Below are positions 11,684 to 31,645 of a DNA stretch of 37,252 bases, in pieces. The stretch is from a virus. Its lineage: Duplodnaviria; Heunggongvirae; Uroviricota; Caudoviricetes. The notes beneath the pieces were generated by a model, which was not told where the DNA came from, made no database searches, and saw only the letters and a program-made list of their open reading frames with translations. Position 1 is the stretch's first letter. The number at the start of each line of letters is the position of its first letter. The position numbers were made by a program, and so were the translations under genes. The stretch is from positions 1-37,252 of IMG/VR virus record IMGVR_UViG_2529292912_000006. One strand, given 5' to 3'.

Positions 11684-11776
11684 ATGAGTCTGTTAAATGA
11701 CGTTCAGAAATTCATTGAAGCCCATCCGGGCTGTACTTCCGGAGACATTGCGGATGCTTTTTACGTGGGGGCTTAA
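11684..11776 (+). CDS. Small coupled ORF (30 aa)
   Basis: Begins 3 nt after the replication gene stop and ends in a TAATG overlap with the methyltransferase start. Confidence 0.3.
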   Translation: MSLLNDVQKFIEAHPGCTSGDIADAFYVGA

Positions 11777-12429
11777 TGAATAATAAATATTGCCAGGCGC
11801 TGGTAGAACTGCGGAACAAACCAGCCCATGAACTGAAGGAAGTGGGCGATCAGTGGCGCACGCCGGACAACATTTTCTGGGGAATTAACACCCTGTTTGG
11901 CCCGTTTGTTCTGGATCTGTTTACTGACGGTGATAACGCCAAATGTGCCGCGTATTACACGGCGGAAGATAACGCGCTGGCGCATGACTGGTCAGAACGT
12001 CTTGCGGAGCTTAAAGGTGCTGCCTTTGGTAATCCCCCATACAGCCGCGCCAGTCAGCATGAGGGGCAATACATCACCGGCATGCGTTACATCATGAAGC
12101 ATGCCAGTGCCATGCGTGATAAAGGCGGGCGCTATGTTTTCCTGATCAAAGCTGCCACCAGCGAAGTGTGGTGGCCGGAAGATGCAGATCATATTGCTTT
12201 TATTCGCGGGCGTATTGGTTTTGAACTGCCTGTCTGGTTTATCCCGAAAGACGAGAAGCAGGTGCCGACAGGCGCTTTCTTCGCTGGTGCTATTGCTGTT
12301 TTCGACAAGACCTGGAAGGGACCGGCAATCAGCTACATCGGGCGCGATGAACTTGAGGCATGTGGTGAGGCGTTTCTGGCGCAGGTTCGCCAGCAGGCGG
12401 AAAAACTGGTCAGGGAGATGGCGGCATGA
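11776..12429 (+). CDS. Phage N6-adenine DNA methyltransferase (Dam-like)
   Basis: Catalytic NPPY motif (…FGNPPYSR…) in a 217-aa protein in the nin-like region. Confidence 0.8.
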   Translation: MNNKYCQALVELRNKPAHELKEVGDQWRTPDNIFWGINTLFGPFVLDLFTDGDNAKCAAYYTAEDNALAHDWSERLAELKGAAFGNPPYSRASQHEGQYITGMRYIMKHASAMRDKGGRYVFLIKAATSEVWWPEDADHIAFIRGRIGFELPVWFIPKDEKQVPTGAFFAGAIAVFDKTWKGPAISYIGRDELEACGEAFLAQVRQQAEKLVREMAA

Positions 12430-12752
12430 CGACGTTAACTCAATGCCAGCAGCAGGTGCTGGATATGCTGATTTCTTATCAGAAAGAGCGTGGCTTTCCG
12501 CCAACCAATCAGGAGGTGGCAACCATGCTGGGATACCGTTCAGTGAATGCAGCGGTAGAGCATCTTCGCGCACTGGAGAAAAAAGGCGTCATCACGATAA
12601 AGCGTGGCGTGGCCCGGGGGATAACGCTTCATACCGCGGTGAAGGACGACGACAGCGAGGCGGTCGGGATTATCCGCTCACTGCTTGCCGGTGAGGAAAA
12701 CGCCAGGCTGCGTGCAGCCCACTGGTTACATGAGAGGGGCCTGAAAGTATGA
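12426..12752 (+). CDS. LexA N-terminal DNA-binding-domain protein lacking the S24 peptidase domain
   Basis: Residues 3-70 align by eye with the LexA winged-helix domain (LTxxQQxVxDxI…GxPPTxxExAxxLGxRSxNAAxEHLxALxKKGVIxI…RGIxL); protein ends at 108 aa with no Ser/Lys dyad region. Confidence 0.75.
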   Translation: MTTLTQCQQQVLDMLISYQKERGFPPTNQEVATMLGYRSVNAAVEHLRALEKKGVITIKRGVARGITLHTAVKDDDSEAVGIIRSLLAGEENARLRAAHWLHERGLKV

Positions 12753-13138
12753 AGCTGATTCTGCCTTTTCCGCCCAGCGTGAACACGTACTGGCGACACC
12801 CCAACAAAGGGGCGTTTGCTGGTAAGAGCCTGATAAGCGCGGCGGGGCGAAAATTCCAGAGCGCGGCGTGCGCAGCAATAGTTGAGCAGTTACGTCGTCT
12901 GCCGAAACCAACGTCGGCACCTGCTGCAGTGGAGATCGTGTTGTTTCCACCGGATAACCGGATCCGCGATCTGGACAACTATAACAAGGCGCTGTTTGAC
13001 GCCCTGACCCACGCGGGGGTGTGGGAAGACGACAGTCAGGTGAAAAGAATGCTGGTGGAGTGGGGACCGGTTATCCCGGAAGGGAAGGTCGAGATCACTA
13101 TCAGTAAGTACGAGAAAACGGCGGGTGCAGCCGCCTGA
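12749..13138 (+). CDS. rusA: RusA-family Holliday junction resolvase
   Basis: 129 aa; characteristic …FPPSVNTYWRH… N-terminus and …DLDNYNKALFDALT… acidic catalytic region. Confidence 0.85.
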   Translation: MKLILPFPPSVNTYWRHPNKGAFAGKSLISAAGRKFQSAACAAIVEQLRRLPKPTSAPAAVEIVLFPPDNRIRDLDNYNKALFDALTHAGVWEDDSQVKRMLVEWGPVIPEGKVEITISKYEKTAGAAA

Positions 13139-13157
13139 TCAAGAGGAGAAACGAAGT

Positions 13158-13955
13158 ATGAATAATCTGATGGTCATTGATGGTATTGAAGTTCGTCGTG
13201 ATGCTTATGGTCGTTACAGCCTGAACGATCTTCACAGGGCTGCCGGTTCTCTGGATAAGCATAAGCCTGCATTCTGGCTCCGCAATGAGCAAACTGAACG
13301 TTTAATAAGCGAGTTGCAGATTTGCAACTCGGTCAATATAGAGCCAGTTAACGTTATTCGTGGCGGAAATAACCAGGGGACGTATGTCTGCAAAGAACTG
13401 GTGTATGCCTATGCAATGTGGATCAGCCCGTCATTCCATCTGAAGGTGATCCGTACTTTCGATATGGTAACCAGCGCACCGGAAAAATTATCCGGGCAGG
13501 CTGCTGACAAGATGCAGGCTGGCGTGATTCTGCTGGACTTTATGCGCCGGGAGTTAAACCTGTCTAACTCATCTGTGCTTGGGGCCTGTCAGAAACTCCA
13601 GGAGGCTGTTGGCTTACCGAATCTGGCACCGCGCTATGCCATTGATGCTCCTGCTGACGCGCCTGATGGCTCAAGTCGCCCGACACTGTCACTGAGTGCA
13701 CTGCTGAAACAGTATGGTATCTGCCTGACGGCTAATCAGGCATATCACCAGATGGCGAAGCTGGGGATCGTTGAACAACGCGAACGATACAGCCGTACCG
13801 CGATTAACAACATCAAAAAATTCTGGTCGCTGACGGCGAAAGGCTGCATGTTCGGCAAGAACATCACCAGTCCTGCAAATCCGCGCGAGACGCAACCGCA
13901 TTTCTTCGAATCCCGATTCCCTGAACTGTTAAAGCTGCTCGATACCGTTCATTGA
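13158..13955 (+). CDS. KilA-N domain protein (antirepressor-like)
   Basis: SD GAGGAG before ATG 13158; N-terminal KilA-N-like region (…YSLNDLHRAAG…KPAFWLRNEQTERLISEL…). Confidence 0.65.
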   Translation: MNNLMVIDGIEVRRDAYGRYSLNDLHRAAGSLDKHKPAFWLRNEQTERLISELQICNSVNIEPVNVIRGGNNQGTYVCKELVYAYAMWISPSFHLKVIRTFDMVTSAPEKLSGQAADKMQAGVILLDFMRRELNLSNSSVLGACQKLQEAVGLPNLAPRYAIDAPADAPDGSSRPTLSLSALLKQYGICLTANQAYHQMAKLGIVEQRERYSRTAINNIKKFWSLTAKGCMFGKNITSPANPRETQPHFFESRFPELLKLLDTVH

Positions 13956-13956
13956 G

Positions 13957-14952
13957 GTGACCGTGAGAGCACTACTGACCCCTGAAATTGCCCCGCGTAT
14001 GGGGATCGTATTGTTCAGGCCCGGTTCAGAGCTGATGCCCCTGTTTATGCAGGGGCGTGTCCTGCTGGAGCCTGAGCCGGAACGTTATTCATCTTTCGCC
14101 AGTGGTGCCGTTCCGGCGGCATCACAACCGCTGGCGGATGATCCTGTCGTTCGGGCCGTGTTTCGCAATGAGGCAGTGATCCGTCGTGCTGGTGGCGTGG
14201 AATGCCTTGAAAGCTGGTTACTTCGTGAAAAGGGCTGTCAGTGGCCTCATTCCGACTGGCACAGCGAGAACATGACCACTATGCGACACGCGCCGGGCGC
14301 AATCCGTCTGTGCTGGCACTGCGATAACCAGCTGCGTGATCAGTTCACGGAACGGCTGGAGTCAATGGCAACGGATAACTGTGCCCGCTGGGTGTTGTCT
14401 GTCGTGCGTCGGGATCTCGGTTTTGATGACAGTCACGTTGTGACAATGCCGGAACTGTGCTGGTGGCTGGTTCGTAATGACCTGGCTGATGCCTTACCGG
14501 AAAGTGCAGCCCGTAAGGCACTGAGATTACCGAAGCCTGTTGTGCCGTCTGTTACCCGGGAAAGTGACCTTGTGCCTTCGGTTCCTGCCACCAGCATCAT
14601 CCAGGATAAAGCGAAAAAAGTGCTGGCGCTGGAAGTGGATCCGGAGTCGCCGGAGTCTTTTATGTTACGCCCAAAACGTCGCCGCTGGGTTAATGAAAAG
14701 TACACGCGCTGGGTTAAGACGCAGCCGTGTGCATGTTGTGGAAAGCCTGCTGATGATCCCCACCACCTGATAGGCCACGGTCAGGGTGGAATGGCTACAA
14801 AAGCGCATGATCTCTTTGTGTTGCCTTTGTGCAGAAAGCATCACGACGAGCTGCATGCGGATACCGTGGCATTTGAAGAGAAGTATGGCTCCCAGCTGGA
14901 GCTGATATTTCGTTTTATCGATCGTGCGCTGGCAATTGGCGTGCTGGCCTGA
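13957..14952 (+). CDS. DUF968-family phage protein (YdfU-like)
   Basis: C-terminal Cys/His cluster (…CACCGKPADDPHHLIGHGQGGMATKAHDLFVLPLCRKHHDELH…); start codon uncertain (GTG 13957, GTG 13963 or ATG 13999). Confidence 0.65.
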   Translation: MTVRALLTPEIAPRMGIVLFRPGSELMPLFMQGRVLLEPEPERYSSFASGAVPAASQPLADDPVVRAVFRNEAVIRRAGGVECLESWLLREKGCQWPHSDWHSENMTTMRHAPGAIRLCWHCDNQLRDQFTERLESMATDNCARWVLSVVRRDLGFDDSHVVTMPELCWWLVRNDLADALPESAARKALRLPKPVVPSVTRESDLVPSVPATSIIQDKAKKVLALEVDPESPESFMLRPKRRRWVNEKYTRWVKTQPCACCGKPADDPHHLIGHGQGGMATKAHDLFVLPLCRKHHDELHADTVAFEEKYGSQLELIFRFIDRALAIGVLA

Positions 14953-14970
14953 TTTTTGTGGGGTAAGTTG

Positions 14971-15315
14971 ATGCGTGATATGTATGAAGTATTGGACCGC
15001 TGGGGAGCATGGGCTGCAGCAGACAACAGTGGTGTGGACTGGCAGCCGGTAGCAGCAGGCTTCAAGGGGCTTTTACCTCATGGCAAAAAGTCACGGATTC
15101 AGTGTGATGATGACGAAGGCATTATGATAGACAGTTGTGTGGCTCGGTTGAGAAAGTATAAACCAGAGGAATATGAGCTCATCATAGCCCACTTTGTTAT
15201 TGGTATCTCATTACGCACTATTGCCAAAAGGAGAAGGTGCTCTGATGGCACTATTAGGAAGGAGTTGCAAACCGCAATCGGTTTTATAGAGGGGGTTGTA
15301 AGTATACTTGTGTAA
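14971..15315 (+). CDS. Late-gene antiterminator Q (QuuD-like)
   Basis: Small protein beginning MRDMYEVLDRWGAWAA… with a Cys-rich motif, at the expected place (end of nin region); ATG 14971 preferred over the TTG start of the track ORF. Confidence 0.75.
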   Translation: MRDMYEVLDRWGAWAAADNSGVDWQPVAAGFKGLLPHGKKSRIQCDDDEGIMIDSCVARLRKYKPEEYELIIAHFVIGISLRTIAKRRRCSDGTIRKELQTAIGFIEGVVSILV

Positions 15316-15322
15316 AATAATA

Positions 15323-15342
15323 AAAGGCGGTAGTACCGCCTT
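15323..15342 (-). terminator. Hairpin terminator ending the reverse-strand cassette (also just after Q)
   Basis: GGCGG…CCGCC hairpin at 15326-15340, followed on the minus strand by TTTTATTATTTT. Confidence 0.5.
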
Positions 15343-15955
15343 AATGATCGAATCGTTGTATGTTTTCATGGAATCTACAAAAGTGAATAGATATTTTGAA
15401 TAGTAAAATGTAGAAACCAACTTGACTTAAAGTTATGGCTTTGCATTTATCATTCAAGAGTTTTTGTAATTCTTCCGTTGGTAATTGGTATACATCATCA
15501 AGAAAAACGATGCATTCTTCTAAGTTGTCTGATTCAGGAAGATAAAAAATATTAGTAATTAACTGCTTCCTTATAGCATCAATTTTGCTATCTATTGAAG
15601 TCTTAGAAACTCCGTTGGAGAGAAGAATAGCTTCGAACTTAGATAAACTTACTAACGGAGCAAAGACTGCACGCATTGGCACATCACGATTATTACTTGT
15701 ATCTATATCGCAACTGTTGCTTAATATAATGCCTCGTGTTTTTTTAGTCCCTTTAATTGAATATACTGTAAGCTCCTTAAATATATCTCCCTGAAGTGCA
15801 GCATTTTTCAGATCATCATGATAATTGCTAAGGTAGTAGTTAGTGTTTTCAGGGAAATCTCTAAGTGCATTTATTAGCCCTTCTTTTTGATGAGCTGTTA
15901 AATAATATGGAATTTGATCTTTGAATTTCTCGATATCAAAAATGTTATTACTCAT
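15341..15955 (-). CDS. Cassette protein C (about 204 aa), unknown function
   Basis: AT-rich ORF; probable ATG at 15955 one codon after the track GTG start; immediately follows the stop of protein B; no motif I can assign. Confidence 0.6.
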   Translation of the reverse strand: MSNNIFDIEKFKDQIPYYLTAHQKEGLINALRDFPENTNYYLSNYHDDLKNAALQGDIFKELTVYSIKGTKKTRGIILSNSCDIDTSNNRDVPMRAVFAPLVSLSKFEAILLSNGVSKTSIDSKIDAIRKQLITNIFYLPESDNLEECIVFLDDVYQLPTEELQKLLNDKCKAITLSQVGFYILLFKISIHFCRFHENIQRFDH

Positions 15956-15958
15956 CAC

Positions 15959-16303
15959 TTAATCCAAGTATAAATCCCACAGTGAAGCATGAACGACTTT
16001 ATTTATTTCACTGCCTAAAGACACCTGGTTTGTCGATAATTTTTCATAAAAGTTTGTCATCGAGACTGCAAGTCTTTGATCAACTGAGATTGTGCTCCCT
16101 GCTTTATATGTTTGTGTGATGGAATGAACTGAATCGGTAGTTGAAGACTTATACTCCAAAGCGTGATTTTTGACGATTAAACTTTGTTGAGGACCATGCT
16201 GTTGATTTTGGGCAATGTCTGTTAATGCAGTTATATGCAGACCATATAAAACCAAAGTTAATACTTGAAGTTGAGCTCGATAAACATGATGAGACGGATA
16301 CAT
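15959..16303 (-). CDS. Cassette protein B (114 aa), unknown function, N-terminal hydrophobic segment
   Basis: GGTGG SD 6 nt before ATG; stop codon abuts the start of protein C; hydrophobic stretch LQVLTLVLYGLHITAL. Confidence 0.45.
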   Translation of the reverse strand: MYPSHHVYRAQLQVLTLVLYGLHITALTDIAQNQQHGPQQSLIVKNHALEYKSSTTDSVHSITQTYKAGSTISVDQRLAVSMTNFYEKLSTNQVSLGSEINKVVHASLWDLYLD

Positions 16304-16318
16304 ATCATACCACCATTT

Positions 16319-17068
16319 CTATTTGTAGGATGGTTCTAGTTCTTGAATTGTTGACTCTTTAAGGCAACTAAAGAAAGCTAATTTATTACAGGAGTGAAGA
16401 TCATCAAGAATTTTTTTTGGTTCGTTTTTAAACTTATCTATTTCATCAGTATTAGTGATTTGCCTAATGCTGTCTATGTCTAGGATTAGTCCTTTTTTAT
16501 TAAATTCTCCATTATCTGACATGACTAAAGCATGAGATAATATTTGAATTATATTTAGAAATGCGCCTTCATTTTTATCGATTCTGATATTGATCGGATA
16601 ATTAGACATAGACTCGCCAGCCATATTTAAGCTGACGTTTAGCTTATCAAATAAATTAGAATCGTCTTCTTTTGGGAAAAAATCTACATACTTTAATGAG
16701 TAGCGGATGATGTTGTCATTTAAATTTAATTTGTTAAGCTCATTTAATACATGAATGATTTTTTCTCTAAAATGACTCCACCCTTGATATTTGGTGCTGG
16801 TGGATACAACAACACCATGGTCACTTAGTCCAATATAGTACCCTTCGATTTCGAGGCGACTGACAACTGCGTAATGTAATTGTTCATCTCCCTCACGAAC
16901 ATTTTTAGGTATTTGACTGGGTGGTAAACTAATTACTGGTTTTGTACAACCTAGAGCGTGAAAAAGAAACCCTGGAACTATTTCCGATATTTGTGTTTCT
17001 TTAGAAAAACGCATTTCGAAAGCAGCTTCGATTACTGGTTGTTTTGATAGAGATGTTGGAATGAGCAT
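16319..17068 (-). CDS. Cassette protein A (249 aa), unknown function
   Basis: First gene of the AT-rich reverse cassette; N-terminus …PVIEAAFEMRF… reminiscent of an uncharacterised TIGR04255-type protein (memory-based, unverified); no catalytic motif recognised. Confidence 0.6.
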   Translation of the reverse strand: MLIPTSLSKQPVIEAAFEMRFSKETQISEIVPGFLFHALGCTKPVISLPPSQIPKNVREGDEQLHYAVVSRLEIEGYYIGLSDHGVVVSTSTKYQGWSHFREKIIHVLNELNKLNLNDNIIRYSLKYVDFFPKEDDSNLFDKLNVSLNMAGESMSNYPINIRIDKNEGAFLNIIQILSHALVMSDNGEFNKKGLILDIDSIRQITNTDEIDKFKNEPKKILDDLHSCNKLAFFSCLKESTIQELEPSYK

Positions 17069-17295
17069 TTAAAACCCATAGTATGTTTTATGAGCTGATT
17101 GGATTTTGAGCATAGCTACCGCACGAATCTTCGAGGAAGATCCAAACATGTGCCTAATGTCGCATCATGCTCAAGGCGGCATAAATTTTGTTTACTGAGT
17201 ATAAGATTAACAACCATTAACTTCCATCAAAAATGCTAACGCGTACGCAAAAACTATTGTATCGTGTTAAGAGTGGTCACTTCGCCACACAGCTT

Positions 17296-17326
17296 AAACC
17301 CGCCGTCGAGCGGGTTTGTCGTTTCT
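17296..17326 (+). terminator. Rightward intrinsic terminator upstream of the lysis genes (possible tR' analogue)
   Basis: 8-bp stem AAACCCGC / GCGGGTTT with 6-nt loop followed by GTCGTTTCT on the plus strand. Confidence 0.4.
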
Positions 17327-17468
17327 GGCCCCGGCTATTTGTTGAGCCTGGTCTATACCGCAGTTATCCATTGGCTCGGCCTCTTTTACGTTTCCGCTTC
17401 TGATTTGCGGTACATGATGTTCCCTCAATTTGCACCTCCTGTATTGGCGAGGTGAGAGATAACTACAA

Positions 17469-17795
17469 ATGCCTCATAACCCAAATACCTGGCTGGAGTT
17501 GGTCCAGAGCTGGTGGCGTGGAGACACACCGCTGGGCGCAGTGATTATGTCGATTGTTATGGCTGGTTTACGTATTGCCTATTTTGGCGGTGGTGGCGGC
17601 TGGAAGCGAAAAACACTCGAAATTCTACTCTGTGGCGCTCTGACGCTGACTTTTGCATCCGCTCTTGAGTATGTCGGATGGCCTAAATCACTATCTGTTG
17701 CCATTGGTGGTGGGGTGGGGCTGATCGGTGTCGATGCTATTCGTGGGGCTGCAATGCGAGTAATCGGTAACAAATTTGGTGGCTCTAAGGAGTAA
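17469..17795 (+). CDS. Holin
   Basis: 108-aa protein with hydrophobic helices and charged C-terminus, directly upstream of the endolysin; SD GAGGTGAGAG. Confidence 0.7.
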   Translation: MPHNPNTWLELVQSWWRGDTPLGAVIMSIVMAGLRIAYFGGGGGWKRKTLEILLCGALTLTFASALEYVGWPKSLSVAIGGGVGLIGVDAIRGAAMRVIGNKFGGSKE

Positions 17796-17798
17796 TTT

Positions 17799-18275
17799 AT
17801 GCAGGTACTAAATTCCCAGCGTAAAGCTTTCCTCGATATGGTGGCTTGGTCAGAAGGAACGGATAACGGACGACAACCGACACGTAACCACGGTTATGAC
17901 GTTATTGTTGGTGGTGAACTCTTCACTGATTACTCCGATCACCCTCGCAAACTTGTCACGCTAAACCCGAAACTCAAGTCAACAGCCGCCGGACGTTACC
18001 AGCTTCTTTCACGCTGGTGGGATGCTTACCGTAAACAGCTTGGCCTGAAAGATTTTTCTCCAGAAAGCCAGGACGTTGTAGCTCTGCAGCAGATTAAAGA
18101 GTGTGGCGCTTTACCGATGATTGACCGCGGCAATATTCGTCAGGCAATCGACCGTTGCAGCAATATCTGGGCGTCATTACCTGGTGCAGGTTACGGTCAG
18201 TATGAACATAAAATCGGTGACCTGATTGCACGGTTTGAAGAGGCTGGTGGGGTGATAAATGAAGTTGAGCTATAA
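17799..18275 (+). CDS. Endolysin, lambda R-type lytic transglycosylase
   Basis: Near-identical by eye to lambda R over most of its length (…NSQRKAFLDMVAWSEGTDNGRQPTRNHGYDVIVGGELFTDYSDHPRKLVTLNPKLKST…). Confidence 0.9.
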   Translation: MQVLNSQRKAFLDMVAWSEGTDNGRQPTRNHGYDVIVGGELFTDYSDHPRKLVTLNPKLKSTAAGRYQLLSRWWDAYRKQLGLKDFSPESQDVVALQQIKECGALPMIDRGNIRQAIDRCSNIWASLPGAGYGQYEHKIGDLIARFEEAGGVINEVEL

Positions 18276-18897: not shown

Positions 18898-19218
18898 ATG
18901 AAAGACGGCATTTATTTTGTTGTGTTCAGAAGCGGTCATAATGATGTTGGCAATGGCACGGTCGTTGTGAAGGATAATGCGGTTAATGGTGGTGATTTTG
19001 GGTTTACCTATCAGGGGCGTGTACAAGATGGGGTATTGAAACTTCATGTATCCCGCCACAACCCTTCAGCACAAAACGTTATTGCAGGCCTTAACGATTA
19101 TGTGATGGATCTCTCAGTGAGAGATATTGGGGATGGTTATTACCTTGAAGGTGGAATTGCTGGTGTTCCTGGTGCGACTCTGTCTGTACAGGCGAAATTT
19201 ATCGGCAATTTGATTTAA
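18898..19218 (+). CDS. Hypothetical protein after lysis genes (106 aa), possibly GrlR-like
   Basis: Clean ORF followed by a strong terminator; beginning MKDGIYFVVF… recalls GrlR-family proteins (memory-based, low certainty). Confidence 0.45.
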   Translation: MKDGIYFVVFRSGHNDVGNGTVVVKDNAVNGGDFGFTYQGRVQDGVLKLHVSRHNPSAQNVIAGLNDYVMDLSVRDIGDGYYLEGGIAGVPGATLSVQAKFIGNLI

Positions 19219-29737: not shown

Positions 29738-31645
29738 ATGGCTGATAATTTTCAGCTGAAAGCCATCATCACCGCCGTTGACAGGCTGTCCGGCCCGCTT
29801 AAAGGTATGCAGCGTCAGCTTAAGGGGTTTCAGAAAGAAGTCTCCAGCCTTGCTCTGGGCGCTGCCGGGGCGGGTACTGCAATAATGGGGGCACTGGCAC
29901 TCCCTGTAAAATCAGCCATCACCCTTGAATCGAAGATGGCTGATGTCCGCAAAGTGGTAGACGGTCTGGATACGCCGGATGCGTTTAAGGCCATGACGGA
30001 GCAGGTACGCGCTTTGTCTACTGAGCTTCCCATGTCTGCAGACGGGATCGCGGAAATTGTGGCGGCTGGCGGTCAGGCCGGGATTGCACGTGATGAACTG
30101 ATGCAGTTTGCCACTGATGCGGTGAAGATGGGCGTGGCCTTTGATACCACGGCTGAAGAGTCCGGGCAGATGATGGCCCAGTGGCGTACTGCGTTTAATA
30201 TGACGCAGGATGAAGTGGCCGGGCTGGCTGACAAAATCAACTACCTTGGTAATACCGGCCCGGCGAATGCGAAGAAAATCTCCGATATTGTTACGCGTAT
30301 TGGTCCTTTAGGTGGTGTTGCAGGTGTGGCTTCCGGCGAAATCGCGGCAATGGGGGCAACCATTGCCGGGATGGGCGTGGAGTCAGAAATTGCCGCCACA
30401 GGGATCAAGAACTTCATGCTTTCCCTGACCGCGGGAAATTCCGCGACAAAATCGCAGAAACAGGCATTACGTTTTCTGCGGATCAATCCGAAGAAATTAG
30501 CTGCTGATATGCAGAAAGATGCCCGGGGAACCATGCTGTCTGTACTGGATGCGATGGCTAAAGTGCCCAAAGAAAAACAGGCAGCTGTGCTGAATGCCCT
30601 GTTCGGGAAAGAGTCTCTGGGCGCGATAGCACCTCTGCTGACTAACCTTGATTTGTTGCGTACCAACTTCAGGCGGGTTGCGGATTCCCAGCAGTATGGC
30701 AGTTCGATGCAGAAGGAATATGCTTCGAGGGCAGCGACGACGGAAAACCAGCTTTTACTTCTGCAAAATCAACTTGATGCCATTTCTTCCACGCTGGGGG
30801 AAACGTTTCTTCCTGAGGTTAATGATGGTCTTGAAGCGGTAAAACCGCTCCTTGAGGAAGTGAGAACGTTTGTCCGTGAAAACCCGGAGCTCGTTAAGAC
30901 CATTGCTAAAATCGGTCTGGCCTTACTGACGGTGGGAGCCGCTGCAGGCTCTTTGTCCAGAATTATGAAAGTTCTCGGCGGTGTGATGAATATGACGCCT
31001 GCTAAGGGGCTGATTGCTCTTCTGGTTGGTGGCGCTTACCTCATTATTGATAACTGGGAAACCGTAGGTCCTGTCATAAAAAAAGTCTGGCACGTGGTGG
31101 ATGAAACGGCGCAGGCGATGGGGGGATGGGAAACTGTTCTGAAAGCGATTGCCCTGTTTATGGCAACCAAATGGGTTGCTGACGTTACCAAATCCATTAC
31201 CGCAGTGACCAGAGAGATGCGTACGCTGGGGAAGGTATCGGCAGAAACGGGATTGATGGGGAAAGGCCGCGGCTTTATCGGGAAGGCCGGGGTATATGGT
31301 TTTCTGGGAACCCTGATGTATGAGCCGGTTAAAGATACTCTGGAAAGTGTTGTTCCTGAAGATACGGTTAACTGGCTGGATAATAAAGGGCTGTTTCTGG
31401 CTTCAGACTGGACGCCTTTTTTTGATCGTAAAGAGTACGAGCAGTATCAGGCCAGCCTGAGTCAGTACAAACCCAATGTTCCGCTGTTGAATCCATCTTC
31501 TTCCATGACACAGCACAGCGAGCTGAAAGTCACGTTCGAGAATGCTCCGCCAGGTATGAAGATAATTGATGTACCGGGCAAAGCCGATCCCCTGATGAAA
31601 ATCACGCACGATGTGGGGTATTCCCCTTTTCGTTTTCCACGATAA
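29738..31645 (+). CDS. Tail tape measure protein
   Basis: 635-aa Ala/Gly-rich helical protein with hydrophobic central segments; SD GAGGAG. Confidence 0.85.
   Translation: MADNFQLKAIITAVDRLSGPLKGMQRQLKGFQKEVSSLALGAAGAGTAIMGALALPVKSAITLESKMADVRKVVDGLDTPDAFKAMTEQVRALSTELPMSADGIAEIVAAGGQAGIARDELMQFATDAVKMGVAFDTTAEESGQMMAQWRTAFNMTQDEVAGLADKINYLGNTGPANAKKISDIVTRIGPLGGVAGVASGEIAAMGATIAGMGVESEIAATGIKNFMLSLTAGNSATKSQKQALRFLRINPKKLAADMQKDARGTMLSVLDAMAKVPKEKQAAVLNALFGKESLGAIAPLLTNLDLLRTNFRRVADSQQYGSSMQKEYASRAATTENQLLLLQNQLDAISSTLGETFLPEVNDGLEAVKPLLEEVRTFVRENPELVKTIAKIGLALLTVGAAAGSLSRIMKVLGGVMNMTPAKGLIALLVGGAYLIIDNWETVGPVIKKVWHVVDETAQAMGGWETVLKAIALFMATKWVADVTKSITAVTREMRTLGKVSAETGLMGKGRGFIGKAGVYGFLGTLMYEPVKDTLESVVPEDTVNWLDNKGLFLASDWTPFFDRKEYEQYQASLSQYKPNVPLLNPSSSMTQHSELKVTFENAPPGMKIIDVPGKADPLMKITHDVGYSPFRFPR

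Follow-up and report, generated by a model that had tools for sequence, protein, structure and literature searches.

A three-gene cassette with a TIGR04255 protein and a MazF/CcdB-fold protein as a candidate toxin-based conflict module of temperate phages

Introduction

MazF and Doc are both classical toxins of toxin–antitoxin (TA) systems. CmdTAC is a tripartite toxin–antitoxin–chaperone defence system, in which abortive infection is set off by a capsid protein (PMC11618068). In type II Gabija, the MazF-like GajC is an effector which is required experimentally for abortive-infection defence in E. coli (PMC13069673). Here we describe a cassette of three genes (A, B and C) found in a window of 37,252 nucleotides, which is the whole stretch of DNA that was analysed (IMG/VR record IMGVR_UViG_2529292912_000006, a virus of the Caudoviricetes). 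An earlier note, made from the letters alone, had suggested a lysogen-expressed defence module of an undescribed type, with a TA-like module or a host-fitness gene as alternatives. Our preferred reading, with a probability of about 0.6, is that the cassette is a toxin-based tripartite conflict module.

Gene organisation and sequence composition

In this E. coli lambdoid prophage, the cassette is composed of three tightly packed minus-strand ORFs located between the gene of the antiterminator Q (PF06530, 151 bits) and that of a holin of lambda type (PF05106); the coordinates and lengths previously given for the ORFs were confirmed. The features are as follows:

15316-17228, no strand: AT-rich insert, which runs from the Q stop up to where the pR'/holin-region homology with other lambdoid phages sets in
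15324-15342, minus strand: intrinsic-terminator-like hairpin (consensus scan and sequence), putative end of the cassette transcript
15341-15958, minus strand: gene C, 205 aa from GTG or 204 aa from the adjacent ATG at 15955
15959-16303, minus strand: gene B, ORF of 114 aa, small acidic protein, phrog_5728
16319-17068, minus strand: gene A, ORF of 249 aa, TIGR04255 family, first gene in the trio
17127-17141, minus strand: leader palindrome ahead of A (ATCTTC-CTC-GAAGAT), a possible operator or RNA hairpin
17198-17227, minus strand: putative sigma-70 promoter for the cassette (ATGGAA and TATACT, separated by 18 nt), as read from the sequence

The stop of A and the start of B are 15 nt apart, with GGTGG inside the gap, and the TAA stop of B runs straight into the GTG-ATG of C (gap 0 nt), just as the earlier note had it. 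In RefSeq, gene C starts at the ATG (204 aa). Based on these gaps and on a small acidic protein encoded directly upstream of a toxin-fold protein, the anatomy of the operon is TA-like. Chance ORFs are ruled out, since A, B and C match PHROG families at E-values of 1e-59 to 1e-132 and conservation of the trio extends to more than 130 loci.

A terminator-like hairpin is indeed present on the minus strand, where Q and C converge; because it overlaps the stop codon of C, its position is shifted by about 2 nt relative to the 15326-15340 given before. The hairpin is followed by TTATTATTTT, with a T-run at about 15314-15323. The AT-richness of the cassette was also borne out: the GC content is 0.30-0.36 over 15200-17000 against 0.49-0.59 in the flanks. 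Concerning the borders of the block, the homology with other alleles of the same Q type ends about 30 nt ahead of the Q stop, the SfII homology begins at window position 17228, and the homology with lambda-like phages begins at 17242.

The promoter candidate is weak against the consensus, and it overlaps back to back with a pR'-like promoter site found by scan on the plus strand (17207-17234). TATACT and its neighbouring bases are kept in two relatives, L103 and L104 (cassettes 65% identical), in which the arms of the leader palindrome co-vary (GAGTCT...AGACTC). A search of 14800-17800 against Rfam gave no matches. Separate acquisition, in agreement with the horizontal origin proposed earlier, is supported by the GC trough and by a terminator and upstream regulatory DNA that belong to the cassette itself. 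The best explanation is an independent operon of horizontal origin, equipped with a candidate promoter region and a terminator. With a size of 1.9 kb, the cassette is self-contained and native to E. coli.

Conservation and distribution of the trio

The trio is conserved as a unit, the point on which the earlier note had asked for comparative genomics. A is present in all 136 loci anchored on C, a B-like ORF is found in about 135 of them, and the A-B-C order is also held in about 135. The spacing of B and C ranges from -52 to +27 nt over more than 120 loci, the larger negative gaps being partly over-extended start calls of C; in relatives, the starts overlap or abut. A small antitoxin-candidate gene adjoins, and would be co-transcribed with, a toxin-fold gene, which is the arrangement of type II TA systems.

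The trio spans at least nine named bacterial phyla, including Pseudomonadota, Desulfobacterota, Bacteroidota, Cyanobacteria, Nitrospirota and Acidobacteriota. TIGR04255 is an uncharacterised family which, clustered at 50% identity, comprises about 1,500 clusters. More than 1,000 E. coli contigs carry the two PHROG/no-Pfam families of the cassette. In three loci (L155, L085 and L108) C is frameshifted and B intact, a pattern of decay in keeping with a toxic C; the first two of these have a complete A, whereas that of L108 is cut to 229 aa. One locus from a MAG (L016) has an apparently truncated A and an intact C. On plasmids, C is found in 2 of 72,556 records, which is evidence against a plasmid-addiction role, and a plasmid addiction module was rejected.

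PADLOC-DB v2.0.0 holds no family for A, B or C at E-values up to 1, and the searchable literature contains nothing on TIGR04255, IPR026349, or the WP accessions and PHROG families of the cassette. This agrees with the suggestion of an undescribed type; the trio is a widespread family without earlier description in these sources.

Genomic locations

In phages, the trio is located beside cI-like repressors, Q/holin, integrase/RDF and tail genes, and in the P2 gpQ portal hotspot. The trio and the CI-like repressor share a strand in VW-6S, and in Pseudomonas phage Dobby the A-B-C trio occupies the P2 gpA-gpQ hotspot. Across 80 genome loci with two neighbours scanned each, the commonest immediate neighbour is a phage integrase (7/141). 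The neighbourhoods in bacterial chromosomes contain integrases, a few scattered defence genes and mostly housekeeping genes, with no clear defence-island signal; this census is based on the commonest families reported, with no formal enrichment statistic. Of the recurrence for which the earlier note had proposed a test, the part concerning accessory slots of temperate phages thus holds. Some chromosomal loci have no obvious phage genes nearby, and in Allochromatium the trio is next to recC and MazEF.

The slot after Q is variable in related prophages and also contains other reverse-oriented cassettes. The alternative Q-S slot cassettes of O104:H4 and O26 have no match in PADLOC, so they give no independent proof of the slot as a defence hotspot, as which the earlier note had seen the Q-holin junction. 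If the conflict-module reading is right, this junction in the present lambdoid lineage, filled by several reverse-oriented cassettes that are uncharacterised, would merit screening.

Proteins A and C

Protein A had been said to recall TIGR04255 only loosely; instead, it is a full-length member, which matches the NCBIfam HMM over residues 7-244 of 249 with 96.2 bits (E 2.6e-27; cutoff 30 bits). The A proteins of distant loci, both those with C and those with a Fic protein, score 52-143 bits. PDB sequence searches with profiles of enterobacterial A and of cross-phylum A gave noise only. Since A does not resemble SecB and no structural relative was found with confidence, the term ‘chaperone/sensor’ is an analogy, and it is by this analogy that we propose A as a sensor or chaperone-like partner of B.

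Protein C has a fold of the MazF/CcdB superfamily, preceded at the N-terminus by about 50 aa of helical extension; it is double the size of MazF and contains inserted helices. With this fold in C and the family membership of A, the proteins can no longer be called unrecognisable. C has no Pfam match at E-values up to 1, including the MazF/PemK family PF02452, and neither a profile match to the CcdB family PF01845 nor CcdB as its closest structural neighbours was found. It also has no match in PADLOC or NCBIfam, and a PDB sequence search with the C profile gave noise only. When the C alignment was compared by hhalign with MazF, Kid, EndoA, ChpBK and PemK, the probability was 2.9%, the references being MazF reference sequences and one PemK from L004.

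C does not conserve the Arg and Thr on which MazF catalysis depends. Among 111 sequences, the residue ahead of strand 2 that is equivalent to R29 of E. coli MazF is K or R in just 75, and the residue equivalent to T52 (P-x-T) is always I, V, L, F or M; the equivalence was set by sequence motifs and secondary structure, not by residue-level superposition. Membership of the classical MazEF or CcdAB systems was rejected. Given the absence of the catalytic pair and of a sequence-level relation to MazF, PemK or CcdB, the fold may serve a non-toxic function. We propose that C, with its MazF/CcdB-fold core, a family-specific invariant polar site and the N-terminal extension, is the effector or toxin.

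Loci with a Fic/Doc protein and the adaptor B

In a second group of loci (L141/142, L146, L147 and L148), a TIGR04255 protein (52-94 bits) is followed by a B-like adaptor and then by a Fic/Doc protein in place of C. The third gene matches Pfam Fic with 26.6 bits (cutoff 24) and contains the motif HPYxNGNGH. The adaptors of these loci have an N-terminal motif in common with B, whereas the C-terminal motif differs by effector type; this co-variation of the adaptor tail with the effector (C or Fic) suggests direct contact. As judged from the sequences, the effector of the TIGR04255 and adaptor loci is swappable, being either C or a Fic/Doc protein.

B ends in a conserved acidic and aromatic C-terminal tail (...LWDLY..); its other parts are a polar N-terminus, a hydrophobic element that is conserved, and a linker rich in Ser and Thr. 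The median pI of the family is 4.64 and the C-terminal 42 aa have a net charge of -6. The homologs of B were chosen by locus position because a k-mer-based homology search recovers B alone, and they align chiefly over the last ~40 residues. No domain match was found for B in Pfam, PADLOC or NCBIfam; in particular, Pfam gives no recognisable DNA-binding domain as in the usual type II antitoxins, whether of AbrB or RHH type, and the evidence ties the co-varying palindrome upstream of A to neither B nor A.

The hydrophobic N-terminal segment that had been noticed in B is real (KD15 = 1.78 at residue 14). The element common to both adaptor types reads (S/T)-(F/L/V)-x-x-PhiPhiPhi-A-G. In several homologs, such as that of L155 (...SSAAQA/E), the segment has the look of a membrane anchor or of a signal peptide for Sec export, and an exported or anchored B would have its C-terminus outside the cytoplasm, in conflict with the role of a cytoplasmic antitoxin. 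K/R residues in the flanks (1.07 before the element, 1.33 after) show no clear positive-inside bias. We propose B as a small, acidic, partly disordered adaptor or antitoxin.

Proposed function and alternative explanations

As the best explanation, to which we give about even odds, the cassette is a three-component TA-like conflict module of temperate phages with a CmdTAC-like way of working. We infer the toxicity of C, its neutralisation by B, the contact of A with B, the trigger and the anti-phage outcome. B would be made just before C and be translationally coupled to it, and its C-terminal tail would keep the effector inactive, while its conserved hydrophobic N-terminal element would engage A. 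A would be the constant partner which stabilises or controls B, and probably the infection sensor, in parallel with CmdC; there, removal of the chaperone by a phage protein leads to loss of the antitoxin and so to a free toxin. Within a lysogen, A, B and C would form an inert complex; a superinfecting phage would disturb the contact of A and B and free C, so that the cell is arrested and the infection aborted. That phage exclusion is the function for which the cassette was selected is a tentative view, somewhat short of an even chance. Defence and a TA-like module had been presented as alternatives; the evidence points to an overlap of both, because C has the fold of a TA toxin, a sister architecture with Fic/Doc exists and B is antitoxin- or adaptor-like.

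The same tripartite TA system could instead have been selected for post-segregational killing or retention of the prophage or accessory slot, which we consider rather unlikely. Phd-Doc of P1 is the classical precedent of prophage addiction (cited in PMC10440598), and the TA-like anatomy, the toxin folds and the chromosomal trios away from obvious phage genes (Allochromatium) all suit such a stabilisation module. However, the trio is nearly absent from plasmids, although addiction modules do well there. Lambdoid and P2-like prophages, being integrated, segregate unlike plasmids, and the favoured positions are ones at which genes for phage defence and morons gather. Somewhat less likely still is an envelope-acting superinfection exclusion or host-fitness moron, with B exported or anchored, A and C as cytoplasmic helpers or regulators, and the barrel of C as a binding module. 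In its favour, the hydrophobic stretch of B and of the B-like adaptors often ends in an AxA-like motif, the MazF catalytic residues are absent from C, and the module, AT-rich as many morons are, has the orientation for expression in the lysogen; yet the hydrophobic element is conserved in sequence over both adaptor types, unlike generic signal peptides, and its flanks show no clear charge bias. The adaptor tail, moreover, co-varies with a cytoplasmic effector, and unless the effector is encoded by the third gene, it is hard to see why C would be exchanged for a Fic/Doc enzyme. The least probable of the explanations, which we regard as improbable, is an enzyme-centred system: A would belong to an ATP-using, glutamine-synthetase/guanidino-kinase fold class and would covalently modify B, C or a phage target, giving a modification switch and not a sequestration-type TA system.

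Returning to the tripartite conflict module, it is possible, with odds of roughly one in three, that TIGR04255 marks an unrecognised broad class of such systems in temperate phages, in which a constant sensor or chaperone would bind a bipartite adaptor, with a common N-terminal handle and a tail specific to the effector, and the adaptor would restrain interchangeable toxins until infection frees them and is thereby aborted. As the toxin, a Fic/Doc enzyme would alternate with a new enzymatic branch of the MazF/CcdB fold whose site, of Cys/His/Asp type, is invariant. If the conflict-module reading is true, a function would be given to TIGR04255 and to two PHROG/no-Pfam families, and the guarded-antitoxin tripartite logic of SecB-type TAC and CmdTAC would have arisen independently with a different, non-SecB guard protein. 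C would then be a MazF-fold protein whose conserved residues fit neither RNase nor gyrase-poison chemistry, and on the broader reading of TIGR04255 as a class, the MazF scaffold would carry a new biochemical activity.

Comparison with known systems

The published hotspot systems Tai, 3HP, type II Gabija and NetFlax are different from the cassette. The ‘hp+hp+hp’ (3HP) system of Rousset et al. 2022 is also a trio without recognisable domains in the P2 gpA-gpQ prophage hotspot; identity with it was rejected, as its proteins (~335, 355 and 227 aa) are visibly unrelated by inspection and size. Type II Gabija (GajB and GajC) shares with the cassette a divergent MazF-fold protein without Pfam-level similarity (PMC13069673). 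In contrast, GajC is a split MazF domain with a UvrD-type helicase partner, whereas in the cassette C is partnered with TIGR04255 and the adaptor, and neither a helicase nor an ATPase is present.

Compared with MazEF, Kis-Kid, PemIK and CcdAB, the cassette has no PemK/CcdB Pfam match and an hhalign probability of about 3%; C is twice as large, has the ~50-aa N-terminal extension and inserted helices, and does not conserve the MazF Arg and Thr. B has no AbrB/RHH domain, and the cassette has an obligate third gene. Phd-Doc/Fic systems resemble the sister loci (L141, L146, L147 and L148) in their Fic/Doc-family third gene with its Fic-like motif; the partners here are TIGR04255 and a B-like adaptor, not Phd/YefM or the HTH ‘mobile mystery protein A’, and the present cassette carries the MazF-fold version and not the Fic/Doc version.

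TAC and CmdTAC consist of three small co-transcribed genes, one for a toxin, one for an antitoxin that is labile and one for a protein controlling this antitoxin (PMC11618068, PMC10440598); the cassette shares this layout, with a putative common transcript and with proposed roles. A differs from their third protein in that it is not a SecB-like chaperone. As in TAC, where one third-protein family is found with different toxin–antitoxin families (PMC10440598, PMC11618068), TIGR04255 proteins appear on comparison with putative effectors of either MazF-fold or Fic type, and the adaptors share the N-terminal element and differ in their tails.

Cassette anatomy and regulatory DNA

The cassette consists of three minus-strand genes (A, B and C), with the gene of the Q antiterminator (PF06530, 151 bits) on one side and that of a lambda-type holin (PF05106) on the other.

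Features of the cassette and its leader in the window
15342-15324, minus: hairpin followed by a T-run, which closes the unit and overlaps the stop codon of C (sequence)
15341-15958, minus: ORF of C, 205 aa from GTG or 204 aa from the next ATG
15959-16303, minus: ORF of B, 114 aa
16319-17068, minus: ORF of A, 249 aa
17141-17127, minus: palindrome ATCTTC-CTC-GAAGAT in the leader upstream of A (sequence)
17203-17198, minus: TATACT, candidate -10-like element; a weak -35 precedes it by 18 nt (by consensus)
17207-17234, plus: putative pR'-like promoter site before a 6S/tR'-like segment (by consensus)

The spacer between A and B is 15 nt long and contains a GGTGG Shine-Dalgarno sequence; the GTG-ATG of C directly follows the TAA of B. 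The GC content of the block is 0.30–0.36, compared with 0.49–0.59 outside. From 17228-17242 onward the sequence is homologous to SfII and lambda-like phages in their pR'/6S/tR' and holin region, which places the foreign block at approximately 15316-17228. The factual statements of the earlier note (ORFs, spacing, hairpin, GC trough and Q/holin flanks) were all confirmed.

The approximately 160 nt that separate A from the pR' homology also occur in L103 and L104, cassettes of 65% identity, where the arms of the palindrome co-vary (GAGTCT...AGACTC); the palindrome is a candidate operator or RNA hairpin. The cassette regulatory region has no Rfam match. The candidate cassette promoter and the plus-strand pR'-like site overlap back to back (17198-17234), so that cassette transcription and Q-dependent late transcription could interfere mutually.

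Conservation of the trio

Our C-anchored sample comprised 80 loci from GTDB species genomes and 48 viral contigs, to which annotated phages and metagenome contigs were added. The genes form an obligate trio: wherever enough upstream sequence was available (136/136 loci), a same-strand A homologue is found upstream of C with a B-sized slot between them, which bears out the suggestion that the triplet is a conserved unit. The small B profile missed 15 loci, but none of their slots lacks an ORF: 14 have one of 93–118 aa with a WDL(Y/I) tail, and that of the remaining locus (L070) is out of frame. Anchoring on divergent A-family members gave five more A-B-C loci (L143, L145, L155, L156 and L157). 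Trio hosts include Alpha-, Beta- and Gammaproteobacteria, Desulfobacterota, Myxococcota, Bacteroidota, Cyanobacteria, Nitrospirota, Acidobacteriota, Gemmatimonadota and Ignavibacteriota, among others.

Degraded trios are also found, in numbers too small for statistics. C is frameshifted or truncated in L155 (4030-4640), L085 (6327-6966), L108 (7998-8614), L040 and L087; B is intact in the first four of these, and L155 and L085 also have an intact A, which is truncated in the other three. The MAG locus L016 shows the reverse pattern, with a short A and an intact C.

Features of the three proteins

Protein A had been said to recall the TIGR04255 family only loosely; the family was right but the strength understated, as A is a full-length member (96 bits, cutoff 30). 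An exhaustive search gave approximately 1,527 A-family clusters at 50% identity, essentially all of about 250 aa and single-domain. Few residues are kept across phyla (E18, R20, R58, Y94, W97, R122, Y127, G193 and D199); these are mostly charged or aromatic and lie on or beside strands. Profile searches found no match to A in PDB sequences.

Protein B evolves fast, with an overall plan that is still recognisable: a polar N-terminus, a hydrophobic element, a Ser/Thr-rich linker and an acidic/aromatic tail. The tail is conserved (...F/LWDLY..) and has a net charge of about -6; the family median pI is 4.6. The hydrophobic element is moderate, with the recurring pattern (S/T)-(F/L/V)-x-x-PhiPhiPhi-A-G. 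It may serve as signal peptide or as membrane anchor, and in several homologues AxA-like motifs end the hydrophobic stretch; however, the element is conserved in sequence and its flanking charges have no clear positive-inside bias.

Protein C has no match in Pfam, NCBIfam or PADLOC, and belongs to a strongly conserved family of more than 466 clusters. Its similarity to MazF-type profiles is undetectable by sequence (hhalign probability 3%); membership of Pfam PemK/MazF or CcdB was rejected, as only the fold is common and the MazF catalytic dyad is absent. The MazF catalytic Arg/Thr positions, equated by motif, are not conserved, and the family has an invariant set of its own (204-aa numbering): Q55-G56-D57, N80, C82, D83, N88, R194 and R201, with R90, K187, S189 and H191 near-invariant. 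The scaffold is thus that of a classical toxin, with chemistry that probably differs.

Exchange of the effector gene

In two loci (L141/142 and L146) the third gene encodes a Fic/Doc-family protein unrelated to C (26.6 bits on Pfam Fic, cutoff 24; motif SIHPYxNGNGHxSRL). With Fic as the anchor, a scan turned up the same arrangement in two further loci, the viral contigs L147 and L148; beside more distant Fic homologues A is absent.

Positions of the Fic-type trios
L141: 3001-4803
L146: 3001-4755
L147: 2739-4672
L148: 1-1792

All A proteins of both C-type and Fic-type loci are formal TIGR04255 members. The Fic-linked adaptors (120–132 aa) retain the N-terminal hydrophobic element and share a C-terminal motif of their own, unlike the WDLY tail of B. 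The simplest reading of these sequences is a bipartite adaptor, whose N-terminal part would be a handle for the constant partner A and whose C-terminal tail would be effector-specific. MazF/CcdB and Doc (of P1 phd-doc) are folds of classical toxin–antitoxin toxins, and each effector type has one of these.

A 107-aa adaptor in L140 (889-1212), following a TIGR04255-family gene, has a C-terminus that is basic and differs from the tails of both the WDLY and the Fic type. This adaptor may mark a third effector class, the third gene lying beyond the end of the contig.

Genomic context

Phage genomes carry the trio in accessory slots. In Pseudomonas phage VW-6S it follows cI immediately and shares its strand; in phage Dobby it is in the P2 gpA-gpQ hotspot, adjoining the portal gene; and Klebsiella lambdoid prophages have it in the nin region, where it runs antisense to the early operon. 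The Q–holin slot holds it here and in other enterobacterial phages (e.g. L103, and presumably L104-L107), and the Fic-type trios of L141 and L146 are inside tail-gene regions. In a PHROG census of non-E. coli viral contigs the commonest neighbours were CI-like repressors, Q-like proteins, integrases/RDFs, tail assembly and portal/terminase proteins.

For bacterial genomes, the two immediate neighbours per locus were considered. They are heterogeneous, phage integrase being the top family (7/141); a few are RM subunits, AbiTii, AriA and HipA and the rest housekeeping. Across these neighbours no clean defence-island signal was seen, and they are compatible with a sporadically inserted mobile cassette. 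On plasmids C is nearly missing (2/72,556 records). The E. coli 'plasmid' record CP085522.1 (41.5 kb) has fragmentary C-like sequence at approximately 31207-31604 (56% identity, in three places; hit H105), perhaps the remains of a copy carried by a phage-plasmid. In Allochromatium palmeri (L004, 2300-2847) a canonical MazE-like/PemK pair and recC directly adjoin the trio.

The cassette is found at ≥99% identity in 92 of 5,426 complete E. coli genomes, always within one conserved block (window ~11761-18211) that recombines into different lambdoid backbones; among the 675 genomes with this Q type it is linked to Q alleles of ≥95% identity. Other two-gene cassettes, also reverse-oriented, are found right after Q in related prophages. 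They may represent further accessory systems of prophages, so far uncharacterised; no PADLOC match was obtained for the two pairs scanned, those of O104:H4 and O26.

Two-gene cassettes in the Q slot of related prophages
O104:H4 (L137, 4852-7244): 404-aa protein and NA37-like (nucleoid-associated-like) 391-aa protein
O26 (L138, 4870-6331): 182 and 308 aa
SfII (L139, 1343-2957): 194 and 340 aa

Elsewhere in the window, the DUF968 protein upstream of Q (13957-14952, plus) matches the putative HNHc nuclease model PF16784 (27.5 bits, cutoff 26.6). A second low-GC patch (0.42–0.44), downstream of the lysis genes and approximately 240 nt beyond the last lysis-region ORF, contains a 106-aa ORF (18898-19218, plus) whose GrlR-like match is below threshold (24.1 bits, cutoff 26.8); this is probably another moron.

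Proposed mechanism and comparison with known systems

The best-supported model is that the trio is a tripartite toxin–antitoxin-like module. C would be the effector, its presumed toxicity neutralised by the C-terminal tail of B. By analogy, A would hold or control B, through contacts with its N-terminal element, and would be the likely point where a triggering infection signal enters, with defence as the expected outcome. The main hypothesis of the earlier note, a lysogen-expressed anti-phage defence, abortive-infection or exclusion module, is plausible and is sharpened by the toxin folds and the modularity.

The claim of a so far undescribed type agrees with PADLOC v2, which gave zero matches to the trio; newer DefenseFinder models might hold one. 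TIGR04255, the trio accessions and the PHROGs are unmentioned in the searchable literature, a description in subscription-only papers being possible. The trio is not the 'hp+hp+hp' system (3HP) of Rousset 2022, as the sequences differ. The finding is real and non-trivial, and the cassette hypothesis is directly testable. What would be new is a guard-protein family and a divergent MazF-fold effector, in a module of a known kind (tripartite toxin–antitoxin/abortive infection).

Type II Gabija depends on a MazF-like protein as its effector (PMC13069673). Toxin–antitoxin–chaperone (TAC) systems have a SecB-like chaperone, whereas the A-B-C trio has none and is not a strict member. [quoted passage not shown]
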